Of a stretch of 64,000 bases of DNA, positions 40,765 to 57,397 are shown in pieces. The number at the start of each line of letters is the position of its first letter. Within the stretch, counting starts at the first letter, position 1. Made by a program: the position numbers and the translations under genes. The stretch is from an uncultured bacterium. GTDB lineage: Bacteria > Armatimonadota > Hebobacteria > CAYNSX01. The stretch spans positions 91-64,090 of the forward strand of contig CAYNSX010000008.1 in assembly GCA_964400165.1 (NCBI GenBank), written 5' to 3'. The notes beneath the pieces were generated by a model that worked only from the letters and a program-made list of their open reading frames with translations, made no database searches and was not told the origin of the DNA.

Positions 40765-41292
40765 ATGGCGCAGTCACGAGAGATCCCGATCAGCGCCGAA
40801 GCCCTCGCCGGGCCGCACATTGTGGCCGGTGCGATGCACGAACACCGCCCGTTGCTGGTGGCCTTTGCGGCGCGGCTGCTCGGCTCGCGCGACGACGCCG
40901 AGGATGTCGTGCAGGAGGCGCTGCTCGCCGCCCACCAGCACGCGGCGCGCTACGACGGCCGGAGCGGGCCGCGCCCGTGGCTGCTGGGCATTGTCGCCAA
41001 CCATTGCCGCTCGTGGTGGCGGACTCACCACCGACGCCTGCAACGCGAGCGACGCGCGGCAGCCCCCTCGTCGGCCCCCGACCCGGAGCCGAATGGGCTG
41101 GTGCTGGCAGCGGTGTTGGATCTGCCGTTGCGGCTGCGCGAGCCGCTGGTACTGCACTACCTCGGCGACCTCTCGTACCGGGAAGTGGGCGAAGCGCTCG
41201 GACTGTCCGAAGATGCGGCCCGGCAGCGCGTTCACCGCGCCCGCGCCCGCCTGCGCATCCTGTTGCGCGCCGAACTGAAGGAGGTCCTGTGA
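40765..41292 (+). CDS. ECF-type RNA polymerase sigma-70 factor
   Basis: Region 2 (VQEALLAAHQH) and region 4 (SYREVGEALGLSEDAARQRVHRAR). Confidence 0.85.
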   Translation: MAQSREIPISAEALAGPHIVAGAMHEHRPLLVAFAARLLGSRDDAEDVVQEALLAAHQHAARYDGRSGPRPWLLGIVANHCRSWWRTHHRRLQRERRAAAPSSAPDPEPNGLVLAAVLDLPLRLREPLVLHYLGDLSYREVGEALGLSEDAARQRVHRARARLRILLRAELKEVL

Positions 41293-42254
41293 TGCGACAC
41301 CCCGATCTGCAACTGCTGCTCGATGACCCGTCCCGCGCTGACGCTCGCGCTCATTTGGCGGAATGCGCTGCGTGCGCGCGGGAGTTCGCTACGCTCCGCC
41401 GATTGGATGACCACTTGCGCGGCGCCCTGCGTGCCGAAGCCACGCTGCCCGCGCCGGTCGCCGTCCTGCCCTGGCGCCGCCGGGCGCTGACCCGGCGCGT
41501 TCTCGCCGCGACGCCAGCGCTGGTCATTCTGGCAGTGCTGGCGGTGACGCTGCGGCCCGTCCTCTTCCCGGCCGCGCCGACTGACCCCGACGCTCTCGAC
41601 CCCGAGGTGGTGATGAAGAAAGCCGAAGGCGCGATGAAGGGGGTGAAGACCGTACGTCTCGTGACGATCGAAAGGCACATGAACGAACCGGAGCGGACGG
41701 TCGTGGAACACATCATGCTGGACACACGCCGAAGTGAAGCCACCACCACCACTGGCGACCGCACAGTGACAATCCGGAACCGGTCCGGCGCATTCACTTA
41801 CGACTACCGCGCAAACACCCTCCGAATCAACCGCGGAGACAAGAATGCCGAAGATGACAATATGGGTCGCGCGGCGTTCGATGTGGTGCCCTTCATTCGG
41901 GGCTTGCTTGCCGACGCGCGCGAACGGGGGACTGATTTGGTGGTGCTGGCGCAGTTGGTCGAGTACAAGCGGCAGGCGAACAAGAGAATCCTGCTGTCGA
42001 TCGATTTCTCCAAGTCCCGCGGTGCCTTCCAGCCGCGAACGGGCTTGTCCATCCTGCTCCACCCGGACACCTACCGTCTGGCGCCCGGCTCCCACATCGA
42101 TGTCCAGATGAACGGATGGAAGGAAAGGCGAGAGGTCCTCGATGTGGCGTACAACGAATCTTTCGATCCCCTCCTCTTCGATACGCCCATCCCAACCGGA
42201 TGGAAGGTGACCGAAGTCAACGAACCCCCGGCGCCGAACACTGACAGGCCGTAA
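41292..42254 (+). CDS. Anti-sigma factor (zf-HC2 type) with TM segment and periplasmic domain
   Basis: HLAECAACAREF zinc motif, TM ATPALVILAVLAVTL, coupled to the sigma gene. Confidence 0.7.
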   Translation: MRHPDLQLLLDDPSRADARAHLAECAACAREFATLRRLDDHLRGALRAEATLPAPVAVLPWRRRALTRRVLAATPALVILAVLAVTLRPVLFPAAPTDPDALDPEVVMKKAEGAMKGVKTVRLVTIERHMNEPERTVVEHIMLDTRRSEATTTTGDRTVTIRNRSGAFTYDYRANTLRINRGDKNAEDDNMGRAAFDVVPFIRGLLADARERGTDLVVLAQLVEYKRQANKRILLSIDFSKSRGAFQPRTGLSILLHPDTYRLAPGSHIDVQMNGWKERREVLDVAYNESFDPLLFDTPIPTGWKVTEVNEPPAPNTDRP

Positions 42255-42258
42255 TTCG

Positions 42259-43104
42259 TTACAGCAGTATGTCCGCCGCGGTGCAGAGGAAGAGCAGCGC
42301 CGAGACCAGGCCGTTGGCGGTAAAGAAGGCGGCGTTCACCCGGCTGAAGTCATTGGGCTTCACCAGCGAGTGCTCCCAGAGCAGCAGCGCCCCGGTGGCG
42401 GCGACGCCGACGGCATAGAACATCTGCAGCGACATCTGCACGCCCAGCACCAGCAGCAGCGCCACCATCCCGGCGTGGCACGCCCGCGACACCCACAGCG
42501 CCGGCCCGGCGCCCAGCCACGCCGGCAGCGACTTCAGGCCCGCTTGCCGGTCGAAGGCGATGTCCTGGCACGAGTAGATGATGTCGAAGCCGGCGGTCCA
42601 CAGCGTCACCGCCGCGGCGAGGACGACGGGCGGCCAGGCCAGGTCGCCGCGCATCGCCACCCACGCCGCCGCCGGCGCGATGCCGAGCGCGCTGCCCAGC
42701 CAGAAGTGCGACAGGACAGTGAAGCGCTTCGACAGCGAGTAGGTGAGCAACACCAACAGCACGACCGGCGACAGCCGCAGCGCCAGCGGGTTCAATTGCC
42801 AGGCCGCCAGCACCAGCAGCCCCGACCCGACTACTACGACGGCCCATAGAGCCGCCACCGACACCTTGCCGCTCGGCACCACCCAGCGCTGCGTGCGCGG
42901 GTTTTGCCGGTCGAAGGGCAGGTCGGCGATGCGGTTGAAAGCCATTGCCGCCGACCGGGCGCCGACCATCGCCACCACAATCCATCCCACCACGCGCCAC
43001 GCCGGCCAGCCGCCCGCCGCCAGCATCATCCCCATCAGCGCGAACGGCAGGGCGAACACAGTATGTTCGAATCGTATGGCCTGCGCCAGCAGGCGCAGCC
43101 GCAT
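42259..43104 (-). CDS. UbiA-family polyprenyltransferase (MqnP-like)
   Basis: Multi-TM with Asp-rich prenyl-diphosphate motifs (NRIADLPFD). Start placed at the MRLRLL ATG, immediately downstream of an AT-rich repeat. Confidence 0.85.
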   Translation of the reverse strand: MRLRLLAQAIRFEHTVFALPFALMGMMLAAGGWPAWRVVGWIVVAMVGARSAAMAFNRIADLPFDRQNPRTQRWVVPSGKVSVAALWAVVVVGSGLLVLAAWQLNPLALRLSPVVLLVLLTYSLSKRFTVLSHFWLGSALGIAPAAAWVAMRGDLAWPPVVLAAAVTLWTAGFDIIYSCQDIAFDRQAGLKSLPAWLGAGPALWVSRACHAGMVALLLVLGVQMSLQMFYAVGVAATGALLLWEHSLVKPNDFSRVNAAFFTANGLVSALLFLCTAADILL

Positions 43105-43135
43105 GAATAATGAATGATGAATAATGAATGGACTA
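43104..43135. repeat. AT-rich TGAATGA-type repeat (catgaataatgaatgatgaataatgaatgg), inverted partner of 43529-43560
   Basis: Reverse complement matches the ATTCATCATTCA tandem motif at 43529-43560. Confidence 0.55.
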
Positions 43136-43528
43136 CGCCCCACTCCCGCCGCCTTTCGCGAGTCGGCGGAGGGAGGCAATGTAGCCATTCAGTTGCCGAA
43201 TAACCGATCGCGTGCCCTCGGTCAAGCGCTCCAATTGTGCAGCCTTCTCGGGTTCGACAAGTGACATCGTGTGCAGATGATCGATGAGTTCCCACGCGGA
43301 GCCACGAGCGATGTACAAGAACTGAATCCGGTCACGATACCCAAACCGACCGAAGGCCTCCGCGATGTTGGCGGATATCGAGAATGCGGCGGAGAAAGTT
43401 TGCTCCTCGATACGACTCTTCCGCAGCCGGTTAGTCCCAAGTAATGCAACGACCTCCGACTTCAGCGTGCGCGCTTCCTTGTAGAGTGCCATGTCCAAGA
43501 GGTCGCGTGACCCTGGAGTGTCAGTCAT
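43133..43528 (-). CDS. Four-helix-bundle protein (23S rRNA intervening-sequence protein family, TIGR02436-like)
   Basis: 131 aa. The family is well known. The gene is bounded by AT-rich inverted repeats and interrupts the ubiD-ubiX-ubiA array. Confidence 0.7.
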   Translation of the reverse strand: MTDTPGSRDLLDMALYKEARTLKSEVVALLGTNRLRKSRIEEQTFSAAFSISANIAEAFGRFGYRDRIQFLYIARGSAWELIDHLHTMSLVEPEKAAQLERLTEGTRSVIRQLNGYIASLRRLAKGGGSGA

Positions 43529-43560
43529 TCATCATTCACCATTCATCATTCATCCTTTTA
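43529..43560. repeat. AT-rich TCATTCA-type repeat (tcattcatcattcaccattcatcattcatcc)
   Basis: See 43104-43135. Confidence 0.55.
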
Positions 43561-44107
43561 GGTGCGCGAGTACTCTCTCGACGACGAAGTCAACCAAATC
43601 TTCTATCCGTTCGGGCTTGTGATAAAACCCCGGCGCGGCGGGGAGGATAATGGCGCCCGCTTCGGAGAGCGTGAGCAGGTTGCGCAGGTGAATGGTGGAG
43701 AAGGGCGTCTCGCGCACGACGAGCACCAGGCGGCGGCGCTCCTTCAGCGCGACATCAGCGGCGCGGGTGATGAGGTCGTTCGAGACGCCGCCGGCGATGC
43801 GCCCTGCGGTGCCCATCGAGCATGGGCAGATGGCCATCGCCGACCAGGGCCGCGAGCCCGACGCCGCGGGCGAATCAAAATCGCTCGGCCCCCAGCCGCG
43901 CACCGTGGCAACATTCTTGCCGAGCAGCAGGTCGGCGCTCGGGCGCGCCGGGTCGATGTCGAGGCCTAGTTCCTCTTTGATGACAAGCGCCCCGTGCTTG
44001 GAGACAAGCAGGTGCACCGTTTCGAAATCGCACAGCGCCCGCTCGAGAAGTCGCACACCGTACCGCGCGCCCGAACCGCCGGTCATCGCCAGAATCAGAT
44101 CGCTCAT
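43550..44107 (-). CDS. ubiX: Flavin prenyltransferase UbiX
   Basis: MTGGSGARYGVRLL flavoprotein N-terminus. 185 aa. Confidence 0.9.
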   Translation of the reverse strand: MSDLILAMTGGSGARYGVRLLERALCDFETVHLLVSKHGALVIKEELGLDIDPARPSADLLLGKNVATVRGWGPSDFDSPAASGSRPWSAMAICPCSMGTAGRIAGGVSNDLITRAADVALKERRRLVLVVRETPFSTIHLRNLLTLSEAGAIILPAAPGFYHKPERIEDLVDFVVERVLAHLKG

Positions 44108-44152
44108 ACGAATGGGATTCGGCGGCGACGCTGGTACCGCCTTTGGCTGCGG

Positions 44153-45595
44153 CTACTTCAGGCCGAGCGACCCCCACAGCGCATCCACTTTCGCCTGCAC
44201 CGCCGGGCTCATCCGGATGTAGTGCGGCCACGGGCGGTCGAAGCCCTCGGACTTCCATTTGGCCGTCGCGTCGAAGCCGATCTTGCTCCCCAGGTCGAGC
44301 AGCGGCGCCGCGTGATTGAGCGAGTCGACCGGCCCCTTCACAATCTGCACATCGCGCGCCGGGTCGATGTGATTGCCGAGGACGAAAATGACTTCCTGCA
44401 TATCGTGCACATTCACCCAGTCGTCCACGATGATGAGCATCTTGGTGAACATCATCTGCCCCAGCCCCCACAGCGCGTGCATCACCTTGAACGCGTGCCC
44501 CGGATACTTCTTCTTGATGCTGACGACCGCCAGGTTGTTGAAGATGCCCTCGGGCGGCATGTGCATATCCACGATTTCCGGCAGCTGCATTTTCAGCATC
44601 GGCAGGAAGATGCGCACGCTGGCGTAGCCGAGCCAGTAATCTTCCTTCGGCGGCGGGCCGACGACGATGGTGTGATAGACGGGATTGCGCCGGTGCGTGA
44701 TGGTGTTGAGATGAAAAACGGGGTACTGCTCCGGCATCGAGTAGAAGCCGGTGTGGTCGCCGAACGGCCCTTCAGTCGCCAGTTCGCCCGGCTGCACGAC
44801 GCCCTCAAGCACAATCTCCGCCTCGGCGGGCACTTCCTGGTCAATCGTCTTGCACTTCACCAGTTCCACTGACTGCTTGCGCAAGAAGCCGGCGAACATC
44901 AACTCGTCCATCCAGTCGGGCAGCGGCGCCGTGCCGGCATAGAGCGTCACCGGATCGGCGCCGATGACGATGGCGACCTCCATCGGCTTGCCGAGGCGCT
45001 GGTGCGCCCGCCAGTGCTCGGCGCCGCCCTTGTGCGTCTGCCAGTGCATCAGAAGCGTGCGGCCGTCCACCACCTGCAAGCGGTAAGTGCCCACATTGCG
45101 CCGGCCGGTCTCCGGGTCTTTGGTGAAGACAAGCGGATAGGTGATGTAGCGGCCGGCGTCGTCGGGCCAGCATTGCAGAATCGGAAGCGCGCCGAGGTCG
45201 GGCTCGGCGGTCACTTCCTGGCAGGCGCCGCGCTTCACCTCCGTCGGCGCCGCCTTGCGCAGCACATCCAACTTCGGCAGTGCGCCGAGCATCTCGCGCA
45301 GGCCGCGCGGCGGCTGCAGGCGCAGCAGGTCCTCGATGTCGGCGGCGACCTCTTCGATGTCGCTGACGCCGAGCGCCATTTGCATCCGCCGCTCGGTGCC
45401 GAAGACATTGATGGCGAGTGGGATCGTCGAGCCCGTCGGTTGCTCGAAAAGCAGCGCCGGCCCATTCTTGCGCACGACACGGTCGCAGACTTCGGTGATT
45501 TCAAGCACCGGATCGACCGGCACGCGCACGCGCTGGAGTTCGCCGGCGCGCTCCAGATCAGCCAGGAATGCCTGCAGATGGGGTGCTGTGCTCAA
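44153..45595 (-). CDS. ubiD: UbiD-family (prFMN-dependent) decarboxylase
   Basis: 480 aa. Conserved UbiD core with ...HTGFYS.. Confidence 0.9.
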   Translation of the reverse strand: MSTAPHLQAFLADLERAGELQRVRVPVDPVLEITEVCDRVVRKNGPALLFEQPTGSTIPLAINVFGTERRMQMALGVSDIEEVAADIEDLLRLQPPRGLREMLGALPKLDVLRKAAPTEVKRGACQEVTAEPDLGALPILQCWPDDAGRYITYPLVFTKDPETGRRNVGTYRLQVVDGRTLLMHWQTHKGGAEHWRAHQRLGKPMEVAIVIGADPVTLYAGTAPLPDWMDELMFAGFLRKQSVELVKCKTIDQEVPAEAEIVLEGVVQPGELATEGPFGDHTGFYSMPEQYPVFHLNTITHRRNPVYHTIVVGPPPKEDYWLGYASVRIFLPMLKMQLPEIVDMHMPPEGIFNNLAVVSIKKKYPGHAFKVMHALWGLGQMMFTKMLIIVDDWVNVHDMQEVIFVLGNHIDPARDVQIVKGPVDSLNHAAPLLDLGSKIGFDATAKWKSEGFDRPWPHYIRMSPAVQAKVDALWGSLGLK

Positions 45596-51023: not shown

Positions 51024-51593
51024 ATGAGCGCCAACCGCCAGCAGCAACTGCGCCAGGAACTGCACCGGCAGTTCGAGGCGCTGGCCGAGCCCTGCCACGG
51101 CGACATTTACCGGTGGGCGCTGCGCCTGACGCGCAATGCCGACCGGGCGGCGGACCTGACGCAGGAAGCGTTCCTCCGCGCCTTTGAAAAGTTTTATCAG
51201 TTTCAAGAAGGGACCAACTTCCGCGCCTGGGTCTCGAAAATTATGGTGAACATCCACATCGCCGACTATCGCAAGCGCCGCCACGCGCCGGATCAGGTCG
51301 CCTGGCAATACCTGACGCGGCCCGACGAGCACCGCCTCGCCGCTGCCGGCAACGGCCAGATGAATCCCGAAGCGGTGTATCTGGCGAAGGCACCCCTGGA
51401 GCGCGTCCGCCGCGCCGTCGACGACCTCCCCGAGCCGTACCGCGACGCGGTGCGCCTCGCCGACTTTGAAGAGTTGCCTTACGAAGAGATCAGCCGGAAA
51501 CTCGCCGTCCCCATCGGCACCGTCCGCTCCCGCATCGCCCGCGGGCGGAAGTTGGTGATTGACGCCCTGCGCCACGAAGCGGAGGCCGGATGA
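51024..51593 (+). CDS. ECF-type RNA polymerase sigma factor
   Basis: Region 2 (DLTQEAFLRAFEKF) and region 4 (SYEEISRKLAVPIGTVRSRIARGR). Confidence 0.85.
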   Translation: MSANRQQQLRQELHRQFEALAEPCHGDIYRWALRLTRNADRAADLTQEAFLRAFEKFYQFQEGTNFRAWVSKIMVNIHIADYRKRRHAPDQVAWQYLTRPDEHRLAAAGNGQMNPEAVYLAKAPLERVRRAVDDLPEPYRDAVRLADFEELPYEEISRKLAVPIGTVRSRIARGRKLVIDALRHEAEAG

Positions 51594-55631: not shown

Positions 55632-57397
55632 GGCGCCGGAGCCCCTGCCGCCAGTTTCGCCGGCTGCGCCGCCGGCTTGGGCGCCGTCCGCAGCGCGCCA
55701 TACGCCCAGCCCAGCCCGCCGCCCGCCAGCATCGCCACCGCCCAGCCGGGCCACAGCCACGCCAGCCGCCGGGCAACGATGATGCCGACCTCAATCCCCT
55801 CGTTCACATCAGGAGTGGCCAGGTTGTCCGGGATGCCCTGCGCACCGAACACGGCCACCGTGAAGATGAGGAAGTACACCACCATCGCCAGCGCCGTCCC
55901 GCGCCGCGCCGAATCCGGCAGCGTGCGGAAGTGCCAATACATCGCCAGCATGAACGGGATCGCCGGAATGCCCACCGCCAGGTTGTAGAGGACGCGCACC
56001 TGCACGATGTTCTGCGGCCAGGGGCCGAAGTACAAGTGCGCCTCGCTCCACTTGCCCATCGCCATCATCTTTGCGTTCAGCCACAACACCATTCCGTGGA
56101 ACATCCCCGGCGTGCCGTAGGTCGCCGCCCCGGCGCGGTACATCCCCTCGAGGCAGAAGATGTAAATCAGGAACGCGATCGGCACCCACAACGCCAACGC
56201 CGACAACCCGAAGAATGGTTTCGTCTTTCGCTTCTGCGGATATTGCAGCACCCAGCCCGCCAGCACCGCCACGAACATGCTCATATACCAGATGTAGGGA
56301 TCCTTGTTGATGTTTACATAACTGATGATGATCATGAACGAGAACAAGATCCAATACAGCAGCGCCATCACCCCAATGATGATGAACAGCGGCCGCTTCG
56401 ACGCCAGCCGCTCGCGGATGGTGTCGAACCACGGCATCATAATCGCCACCGCCGGCAGCAGCATCGTACCGATGACCGCCGGCACCGGCTTCATCTCCTT
56501 GAACATCTGATACAGCGCCAGGAAATACCAGTCCGACAGCACGGGCACCGGCGTCGTATCCGGGTCGGCGCGCGGGCCCATTGTCGCCGGCAGCATCGCC
56601 GACACGATGATGACCATCAGCGAGTAGGTCACAATCGTCGGCCAGGGCAGGTTCATCCGGCTGACCTTCACCCACGGCGTGTTGATCGCCGGATAGCGCC
56701 GCTTGTAGAAGTGTAGTTCCGTCAGCAGGATGAGCAGCAGCGAGAAGGTGTAGTGCAGCATATAGAACCGCGTGATCGTCGCCGGTCCGATCCCCGACCC
56801 GCCCAGCAGCAGTTGCGCGGTCAGCACCCCCATCCGGGTCAGGCCGAGGTACGGCATATCGTCCATGTAGGTCGGGAAGGTGGCGAAGACCTTCGTCGCC
56901 CAGAACGCCCGCTGGTTCCAGATGAGCAGGTAGCCCGTCAGCCCCGAATACATCCCGAAGAGCAGCAGGATGATGGCAATGGCGTAACTCAATTCGCCGG
57001 GCCGCTTGTATTCGCCGCAGAACACCATCCGGAAGATGCGCGCGGTGATCAGGATGATGAACGCGTCGGCGCCATACTTGTGCACCCCGCGGATGAGCCA
57101 GCCGAGCGGAATGCCGTGTTGAATTGTGTTGATGCTGTCCCAGGCGTTGGTCTCGGTGGGGATGTACCAGAACATCAGCACGAAGCCGGTAATCAAGACC
57201 AGAACGAGGTAGTAGTACGCGCCGCCACCGGCCAGGAACAGCGGGTTCCGGCGCTTCTCCGCATCGGTGGCGTGTTCGTCGAAGAGGTCGAGGTTGTCCA
57301 GCCGGACCCGCCACCAGCGGGCCGTGCGGTCGAGCACCGCCGCCGGGCGCCAGTACGCAAGCAGGCGGTGCAGGCGGCTGGTCTGCACTTCAGGCAA
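55628..57397 (-). CDS. Cytochrome b of a bc-type complex, long form (589 aa, extra C-terminal TM helices)
   Basis: GADAFIILITARIFRMVF and b6/b N-terminal domain features, followed by a subunit-IV-like region. Confidence 0.85.
   Translation of the reverse strand: MPEVQTSRLHRLLAYWRPAAVLDRTARWWRVRLDNLDLFDEHATDAEKRRNPLFLAGGGAYYYLVLVLITGFVLMFWYIPTETNAWDSINTIQHGIPLGWLIRGVHKYGADAFIILITARIFRMVFCGEYKRPGELSYAIAIILLLFGMYSGLTGYLLIWNQRAFWATKVFATFPTYMDDMPYLGLTRMGVLTAQLLLGGSGIGPATITRFYMLHYTFSLLLILLTELHFYKRRYPAINTPWVKVSRMNLPWPTIVTYSLMVIIVSAMLPATMGPRADPDTTPVPVLSDWYFLALYQMFKEMKPVPAVIGTMLLPAVAIMMPWFDTIRERLASKRPLFIIIGVMALLYWILFSFMIIISYVNINKDPYIWYMSMFVAVLAGWVLQYPQKRKTKPFFGLSALALWVPIAFLIYIFCLEGMYRAGAATYGTPGMFHGMVLWLNAKMMAMGKWSEAHLYFGPWPQNIVQVRVLYNLAVGIPAIPFMLAMYWHFRTLPDSARRGTALAMVVYFLIFTVAVFGAQGIPDNLATPDVNEGIEVGIIVARRLAWLWPGWAVAMLAGGGLGWAYGALRTAPKPAAQPAKLAAGAPAP

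Follow-up and report, generated by a model that had tools for sequence, protein, structure and literature searches.

Intervening sequences (IVSs) of bacterial 23S rRNA genes are the described systems that most resemble the element considered here, and no other relatives of it have been characterized by experiment. The IVS of Coxiella burnetii is 428 nt long, contains an ORF of the PF05635 family and is bounded by inverted repeats forming a 28-bp stem, with three to four tandem heptamers placed directly upstream of the start codon (PMC4990558). In vitro cleavage and RACE revealed that RNase III cuts within this stem, and the authors of that work described the element as selfish (PMC4990558). 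Studies cited there also place IVSs with an S23p ORF in Leptospira, Brucella and Xanthomonas (cited in PMC4990558). What the IVS-encoded S23p proteins do, and whether the IVSs move, have been long-standing questions since the early 1990s, and to this day the family bears no annotation beyond "four helix bundle protein". The PF05635/TIGR02436 family has no assigned function, and membership in it therefore explains nothing about mechanism.

Two further systems share individual features with this architecture: 1) Avd, a DGR accessory protein that is regarded as a homologue of PF05635 (PMC10053308). 2) The direct repeats of a TAACTGA heptamer that occur between genes of Beggiatoaceae, cyanobacteria and Bacteroidetes (PMC4679880).

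The locus studied here lies in a 64-kb stretch of DNA, the whole of which was analysed and is hereafter called the window. On its minus strand the genes are ordered as ubiD-like, ubiX-like, a 131-aa ORF and ubiA-like, the small ORF being on the same strand as its three neighbors (Table 1). Matches to NCBIfam models identify these neighbors as late menaquinone genes of the futalosine pathway; the aminofutalosine synthase MqnE is encoded 1.6 kb downstream, and the genes within ~7 kb of the small ORF code for UbiX, UbiA, an unannotated 320-aa ORF, an ECF sigma factor, MqnE and PurH. The small gene and two inverted runs of heptamers, which cap it at both ends, together make up a cassette of ~450 bp. 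A search by motif and composition recovered no second copy of this cassette in the window, and no Rfam family, rRNA or tRNA was detected anywhere in these 64 kb. Likewise, no promoter-like site was found on the coding strand in or beside the cassette.

Table 1. Features of the cassette and of the host menaquinone genes around it (positions are those of the window)
Feature	Position	Strand	Remarks
UbiD-family menaquinone decarboxylase, first gene of the array	44153..45595	(-)	mena_SCO4490 equivalog passed
UbiX-family flavin prenyltransferase, mqnM-like, upstream of cassette	43550..44107	(-)	profile match
5' arm	43526..43553	(-)	sense ATGAATG ATGAATG GTGAATG ATGAATG; 4 tandem heptamers, no C
four-helix-bundle protein gene, 131 aa	43133..43528	(-)	PF05635 / TIGR02436
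3' arm	43103..43130	(-)	sense CATTCAT TATTCAT CATTCAT TATTCAT; 4 tandem heptamers, no G
UbiA-like prenyltransferase, mqnP-like, 281 aa, downstream of cassette	42259..43104	(-)	profile match

The product of the 131-aa ORF matched PF05635 ("23S rRNA-intervening sequence protein") with 62.4 bits against a cut-off of 33.8, the match covering residues 12-115 of the protein on a model of 106 positions, and TIGR02436 ("four helix bundle protein") with 70.9 bits against a cut-off of 24. Within the family it is a divergent member, the nearest of 1.8 billion cluster representatives being 42% identical. The residues that recur in an alignment of 36 family members (hereafter A2), namely Q43, S50, N54-I55-A56-E57, G60-R61, R75, S77 and E80, are all present, and with them the conserved NIAE-G-GR and ARGS--E motifs. 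The A2 subfamily profile recovered the structure of Xanthomonas XCC0516 (PDB: 2GSC; E = 2e-28) and also that of 2RLD; by this profile similarity the protein is predicted to adopt a pentameric four-helix-bundle fold. Both structures are themselves uncharacterized and were the only ones matched, and no recognizable nuclease or recombinase motif was found in the protein. As this is the sole ORF of the cassette, no transposase or recombinase is encoded by it. The GC content of the gene is ~55-58%, against 65-74% in its neighbors.

The arms are 28 nt each, 89% complementary to each other and 395 nt apart in a repeat search, both being built from 7-nt units in tandem (detected as the 14-nt direct repeats D1 and D2). 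When the two are paired position by position in the sense RNA, 25 positions form Watson-Crick pairs and the remaining three are all G.U on the sense strand, leaving no true mismatch. With up to 2 mismatches allowed, TGAATGATGAATG occurs 6 times in the window, in all cases within the two arms; 0.65 occurrences are expected by chance and none of 100 shuffled sequences reached 6. The GC content of the arms is 23-30% in a window of 67%, which places them among its most AT-rich 30-mers. Start and stop codons are interlocked with these repeats: of the two ends of the 5' arm, the outer one takes in the ubiX stop codon (43552-43550) and the inner one the ATG of the cassette gene (43528-43526), and the ATG of ubiA/mqnP (43104-43102) lies within the 3' arm at the outer end. 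Thus, the intergenic spacers on both sides of the cassette gene consist of the arms themselves. An independent JGI metagenome contig is 99.85% identical to the locus over 7,255 nt and carries the same sequence, which shows that the locus is not an assembly artefact. These measurements agree with the initial annotation, which had placed a four-helix-bundle gene between ubiX and ubiA, flanked it with inverted heptamer tracts of ~30 bp that differ from the surrounding GC-rich DNA, and set the ubiA start codon inside one of the repeats; its coordinates for the tracts were right to within a few bases.

Comparison with the 23S rRNA IVSs reveals a likeness that, with respect to the Coxiella element, extends to nearly every measure: the protein family is the same, the ORF is in sense orientation relative to the host transcript, the complementary termini form a long enclosing stem of ~28 bp, and the total length is ~430-450 nt. 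The differences lie in location and fate. Instead of residing in helix 25 or 45 of 23S rRNA, the cassette is flanked by ubiX and ubiA, i.e. it occupies an intergenic spacer of a protein-coding operon and holds host stop and start codons inside its arms, and it is accordingly not a true 23S IVS. Further, the Coxiella ORF is apparently decaying and untranslated, whereas the ORF in the window is intact and belongs to a family under purifying selection. Excision by RNase III, which has been demonstrated for rRNA IVSs, would apply to the cassette by analogy. We infer from this comparison an IVS-like design outside rRNA that would work like a 23S IVS.

To judge how the cassette came to its present position we examined the ubiX-ubiA junction in relatives, the spacing of which the initial annotation had proposed to compare. 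The lineage is sparsely sampled, with the identity of MqnP homologues falling from 95% directly to 62%, and the comparison at this junction comprises three lineages. The closest relative, represented by three independent contigs (L003-L005), is 94-95% identical in MqnP, 94% in UbiX and 97% in UbiD at the amino acid level. It displays an empty site, where ubiA follows ubiX after 12 nt with neither a small ORF nor heptamers; the last two codons and the stop codon of ubiX in the window are unlike those of the empty-site ubiX. The third lineage, a 956-bp Logan contig (L002) with a ubiA gene 94% identical in amino acids and 89% in nucleotides to that of the window, is filled at the same junction. 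Its PF05635 gene likewise codes for 131 aa, which are only 53% identical to those of the window. The arms of this allele are 30 nt long, 90% complementary and 392 nt apart, with four heptamers each, and the heptamer ATGATTG/CAATCAT differs from the ATGAATG/CATTCAT of the window at one position that has changed on both arms; the central pair of the repeated unit is thus A-U in the window and U-A in L002, both arms having changed together.

The two four-helix-bundle genes are saturated at synonymous sites (pS 0.75), whereas the adjacent ubiA genes have a dS of 0.40, which indicates that the two cassettes are not orthologues that diverged along with their hosts. Hence, to go by their divergence, they are either separate arrivals or one has replaced the other at the same junction, which is empty in the third lineage. 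Their third codon positions also set them apart from the host, with a GC3 of 0.68 in the window cassette and 0.55 in the L002 allele as against 0.80-0.92 in host genes. The gene is therefore neither universally present at this position, given the empty site in L003-L005, nor host-like in composition. Together with the Coxiella-like architecture, the polymorphism and the foreign composition lend support to the early suggestion of a small selfish or mobile insertion of the kind found in rRNA.

Neither filled site shows a target-site duplication, and no direct repeat borders the arms. We considered the possibility that deletion of a cassette had left a scar in the form of the 43-nt spacer at the empty site, as ATGACGACTCC within this spacer resembles the start of the ORF; however, the alignment was no better than those of shuffled sequences (p = 0.33 and 0.15), and the spacer has no significant similarity to either the window or the L002 cassette. 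A scan of metagenomes recovered no further orthologues at the ubiX-ubiA junction, the best match being 42% identical, and a first scan of genomes with an alignment of two sequences gave no matches. MqnP relatives of ~60% identity are embedded in a different gene order with no ubiX upstream and are thus uninformative on the junction.

We then asked how far this organization extends across the family. Using the A2 alignment, which was built from an exhaustive HMMER search, along with the two-sequence alignment, we fetched 160 loci of relatives from genomes and metagenomes of many phyla. In the 148 loci with enough flanking sequence we compared 170 nt around the start codon with 170 nt after the stop codon and scored their best complementary match without gaps. 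A score of at least 12 was attained by 72% of these loci (median score 14). The corresponding fraction was 6% when a 5' flank was compared with the 3' flank of another locus, 10% when the same flanks were compared in direct orientation, and 0% when the same geometry was shifted by 1.3 kb. In ~92% of the 106 arm-positive loci the best tandem period was 6, 7 or 8 nt or double these values, and the repeat unit was specific to nearly every element (e.g. GGTTATT, GTAATCR, CGAAAYT, GAGATTA, TGGAAAY, GGGATTW and ATTGTTNN). The arms also have a polarity: C makes up 6% of the 5' arms and G 6% of the 3' arms, G exceeds C in 93 of the 106 5' arms, and 47 of these contain no C at all. Arms consisting of element-specific tandem repeats are thus a hallmark of the whole PF05635 gene family. 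Full-text searches, the reach of which ended before most subscription journals, returned no description of such family-wide arms, and one may already exist in print.

Arms differ greatly in their number of units, the counts running from 2 to above 15 without five being favored, and hence do not support a correspondence of one repeat unit to each subunit of a pentamer. The 5' arm of the window cassette contains TGA and ATG in all three frames, and we considered whether such arms act as a stop/start cap independent of reading frame; across the 106 elements, arms with stops in three frames were no commoner in the inward-reading than in the opposite direction. Nor are the arms specific to phages, as viral contigs contributed only 12 relatives, most of which also have repeat arms. 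Among isolated mismatches between the arms, G.U was not in excess of A.C (37 vs 31; 125 vs 118).

The PF05635 genes are co-oriented with the upstream neighbor in 88% and with the downstream neighbor in 85% of cases, the baseline for other adjacent gene pairs at the same loci being 71%. Two or three copies are found within 6 kb at 15 loci, in the same orientation in all but one of these, and where clustered copies have detectable arms, an arm is usually matched better by its own partner than by that of the neighboring copy. One copy is located between tRNA genes (L113). No 23S rRNA was detected at the sampled loci with conserved 23S motifs, a weak test, or at the 20 ORF-poorest loci with an Rfam scan. 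Between related genomes, orthologous copies show roughly the same degree of conservation as the sequences that flank them, and in 11 orthologous pairs dN/dS was 0.02-0.16. In many lineages other than that of the window the gene is passed on vertically at a fixed position, often stably. The strong purifying selection argues that these proteins are functional and do something, for which binding of the arms, control of processing and mobility could be candidate roles. A possible case of transfer is provided by two loci (L145 and L163), the four-helix-bundle genes of which are 97% identical in amino acids and 93% in nucleotides; here the similarity starts within the 5' repeat array, and the left flanks are unrelated.

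These features delimit the cassette from other known elements. As with Avd, its product is predicted to be a small pentameric four-helix-bundle protein, a class of which Avd is a nucleic-acid-binding member; unlike in DGRs, there is neither a reverse transcriptase nor a pair of template and variable repeats near the cassette. None of the genes within ~7 kb of it codes for an RT domain, and its gene is accordingly not a DGR accessory gene; the A2 profile did not recover Avd at E<=0.01. With IS elements, MITEs and eukaryotic Foldback elements the cassette shares terminal inverted repeats, presence/absence polymorphism, small size and foreign composition, and with Foldback elements also termini that are built of short tandem repeats. 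In contrast to these it has no transposase and no target-site duplication, its termini are specific to the element, and G and C are distributed asymmetrically between the strands of its arms. Hence, despite the terminal inverted repeats, it is not a conventional IS or MITE, for which a transposase, a target duplication and a terminal sequence common to the family are all lacking. The TAACTGA arrays are comparable in being tandem intergenic units of 7 nt that often end at a start codon and are missing from close syntenic relatives (PMC4679880). They differ in that one heptamer is shared genome-wide as direct repeats, with no inverted pairs and no link to a four-helix-bundle gene described (PMC4679880).

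Taken together, the locus holds a cassette of the IVS type that resides in an mRNA operon and for which nature provides both an empty site and a second allele. The explanation that we favor, and hold to be probable though far from assured, is that the cassette was acquired horizontally and that, in the operon transcript, pairing of its arms encloses it in a stem which RNase III can cleave. On this account it would have entered the short spacer that separates mqnM (ubiX) from mqnP (ubiA) precisely, in the orientation of the operon, and, having no promoter of its own, would be transcribed within the mqn transcript. Pairing between the 5' arm, made only of G, U and A, and the 3' arm, made only of C, A and U, would then yield a duplex of ~28-32 bp with the ORF looped out between its strands. 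RNase III would cut this duplex as in the 23S rRNA IVSs; such cleavage would release the RNA of the cassette and separate the mqnLM message from that of mqnP, and the pieces of host RNA would stay usable, making the insertion tolerable. With G confined to one arm and C to the other, neither arm would fold on itself and the long-range stem would be favored. The proposed pairing and cleavage derive from the absence of a promoter, the filling of the operon spacers by the cassette and the closing stem itself, which is contained in the minimum free energy and centroid folds of both alleles (z = -4.9 for the window and -4.8 for L002). As a cost that counts against this explanation, the start codons of the cassette gene and of mqnP alike would be sequestered in the closing stem.

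Not all observations bear on this explanation in the same direction. The segregation of G and C between the arms argues for a functional state that is single-stranded, be it RNA or ssDNA, while the absence of a G.U excess over A.C gives no statistical sign that selection acts to keep the arms paired in the sense RNA; they may instead be kept alike as DNA, in the manner of terminal inverted repeats. One alternative accordingly treats the arms as terminal inverted repeats acting in DNA, with the cassette as a minimal transposable or homing element, moved either by the four-helix-bundle protein or by a host or trans-acting enzyme that recognizes the repeat arrays, and with pairing in RNA as a by-product whose only effect would be to let the element survive in rRNA and operons. 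We regard this as possible but rather unlikely, and it is partly compatible with the explanation preferred here. It accounts for the finding of presence, absence and a second allele at a single junction, with alleles that have diverged far beyond the host genes, as well as for the foreign composition, the random spectrum of arm mismatches and the L145/L163 similarity that begins inside the 5' repeat array between unrelated left flanks; moreover, earlier authors had proposed that IVSs are remnants of transposition or mobile elements (cited in PMC4990558). It has more difficulty with a cassette that is present as a single copy in 64 kb, has generated no target-site duplication at either filled site and codes for a protein with no recognizable nuclease or recombinase motif. 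As the unit differs from element to element, each would need a recognition specificity of its own, and the strict segregation of G and C has no obvious rationale in the recognition of dsDNA; the stable inheritance of many orthologous copies is likewise unexpected. The two views could be reconciled if the arms marked the ends of a unit that is mobile or can be exchanged, and if their ability to pair once transcribed permitted this unit to reside in rRNA, tRNA clusters and operons.

Vertical inheritance and conservation similar to that of the flanks, on the other hand, are less readily understood for a purely selfish insertion than for a gene that is resident and serves its host. In the latter case, the repeat arrays would be putative binding sites for the pentameric product, serving in autoregulation, in control of the processing or translation of the neighbors or as an operon insulator, and the polymorphism at the junction would stem from allelic replacement by homologous recombination rather than from mobility of the element. 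The low dN/dS of the family, its co-directional embedding in operons, often with several copies in a row, and the kinship with the nucleic-acid-binding DGR protein Avd (PMC10053308) are all consistent with this proposal, and repeat arrays would suit a ring-shaped multimer such as that suggested by the five chains each of 2GSC and 2RLD. We nevertheless judge it to be improbable. The wide variation in the number of units with no preference for five does not match such a ring, the empty site in a near-identical relative with an otherwise intact mqn set indicates that the gene is dispensable there, and the GC3 is foreign. Moreover, the excised and degraded copies inside rRNA genes (PMC4990558) point to an insertion rather than a host regulator. 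As for the notion that the arms are low-complexity sequence arising by chance or from misassembly, the simple and AT-rich nature of the repeats is all that speaks for it, and it is already refuted by the failure of all 100 shuffles to reach the observed motif count, by the identical locus in an independent assembly, by the same architecture in the second allele and by the agreement of the family-wide controls.

Returning to the IVS-type cassette that we favor, the survey suggests that the majority of PF05635 genes form cassettes, the inverted arms of which are polar arrays of tandem repeats specific to the element. This amounts to a testable rule, namely that across many phyla, and in places other than rRNA, most family members carry their own pair of inverted tandem arrays of 6-8-nt units of fixed polarity. 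If it holds, these genes ought to be treated as cassettes comprising the ORF and its arms, and it would be explained why rRNA, tRNA clusters and operons survive the presence of the same ORF. More speculatively, and with a good deal of doubt on our own part, we propose that PF05635 genes and their arms constitute a widespread, unrecognized class of minimal elements spread over the bacteria as a whole, in which the pentameric protein might recognize the single-stranded arm stem of its own element, with G on one side of the stem and C on the other, and either mobilize the cassette or govern its excision from host transcripts. Were this correct, the class would be found in operons, tRNA clusters and rRNA genes, and the rRNA IVSs known since 1990 would be its visible tip. 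The ubiX-ubiA locus offers a clean natural experiment, with an empty site, a filled site and a deeply diverged allele at one junction of an operon for an essential pathway.

A minor observation concerns the start of the cassette gene. An exact-sequence look-up of the 131-aa product returned no entry, and the public annotation begins the protein at M13 (P0001, 119 aa). Residues 1-12 of the longer product are conserved in the L002 allele.

Examination of the 106 loci in which arms are detectable around a four-helix gene showed that the polarity of these inverted repeat arrays is almost invariant across the family (e.g. L020, L027, L050 and L158). From either end, the strand that reads 5' to 3' into the element is rich in G and poor in C, with G exceeding C in 93 of 106 arms and C being entirely absent from 47. 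The shortest arms at these loci measure 12 nt and the longest 78 nt.

Two or three four-helix-bundle genes were found within 6 kb of each other at 15 of the approximately 160 loci encoding relatives of the window's gene (e.g. L033, L035, L018, L058, L077 and L141). These clustered genes share the same orientation in all but one of the 15 loci, with one or two host genes lying between copies, and where their arms are detectable an arm usually fits its own partner better than the arm of the neighboring copy. Additionally, a four-helix gene is common to two metagenome contigs, L145 and L163, with 97% amino acid identity between the products. Their nucleotide similarity begins inside the 5' heptamer array, the sequences to the left of which are unrelated, and L163 lacks sequence on its right side; this comparison suggests that the two may represent one cassette in two contexts.

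Coordinates of features in the window and in loci from other genomes and metagenomes
Locus	Position	Strand	Feature
Window	10407-10440		AT-rich patch
Window	40765-42254	+	ECF-type sigma-70 gene (175 aa), then ORF of ~320 aa without Pfam domain; between mqnP and mqnE
Window	43492-43528		Start region of four-helix gene
Window	44108-44152		ubiD-ubiX spacer
Window	51180-51215		AT-rich patch
Window	56300-56340		AT-rich patch
L003	4676-5361		FitA-like RHH and PIN pair
L033	1365-6074		Multi-copy four-helix locus
L113	72-155, 180-251, 990-1060	same as four-helix gene	tRNA genes
L113	602-946	same as tRNA genes	Four-helix-bundle gene
L145	890-1380		Shared four-helix gene
L163	2356-2853		Shared four-helix gene

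The public annotation of the window's four-helix gene (P0001, 119 aa) begins at M13. However, the ATG at 43528, within the 5' arm, is more likely to be the start, because the 12 codons preceding M13, including DLLD/EM, are conserved with the diverged allele at the same junction in L002.

In the relative with an empty ubiX-ubiA junction (L003, and likewise L004 and L005) a FitA-like RHH and PIN toxin-antitoxin pair is inserted between ubiD and ubiX, whereas this gap in the window is only a 45-nt spacer. Small accessory modules seem to accumulate in the spacers of the ubiD-ubiX-ubiA operon. In L113 the four-helix-bundle gene lies in a stable-RNA cluster of tRNA rather than rRNA genes.

Elsewhere in the window (67% GC), three short patches with GC of 30% or less bear no sequence relation to the heptamer arms. 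The sigma-70 gene and its companion ORF, which are also found as a pair in relatives, lie on the strand opposite to the menaquinone genes and break up their run.
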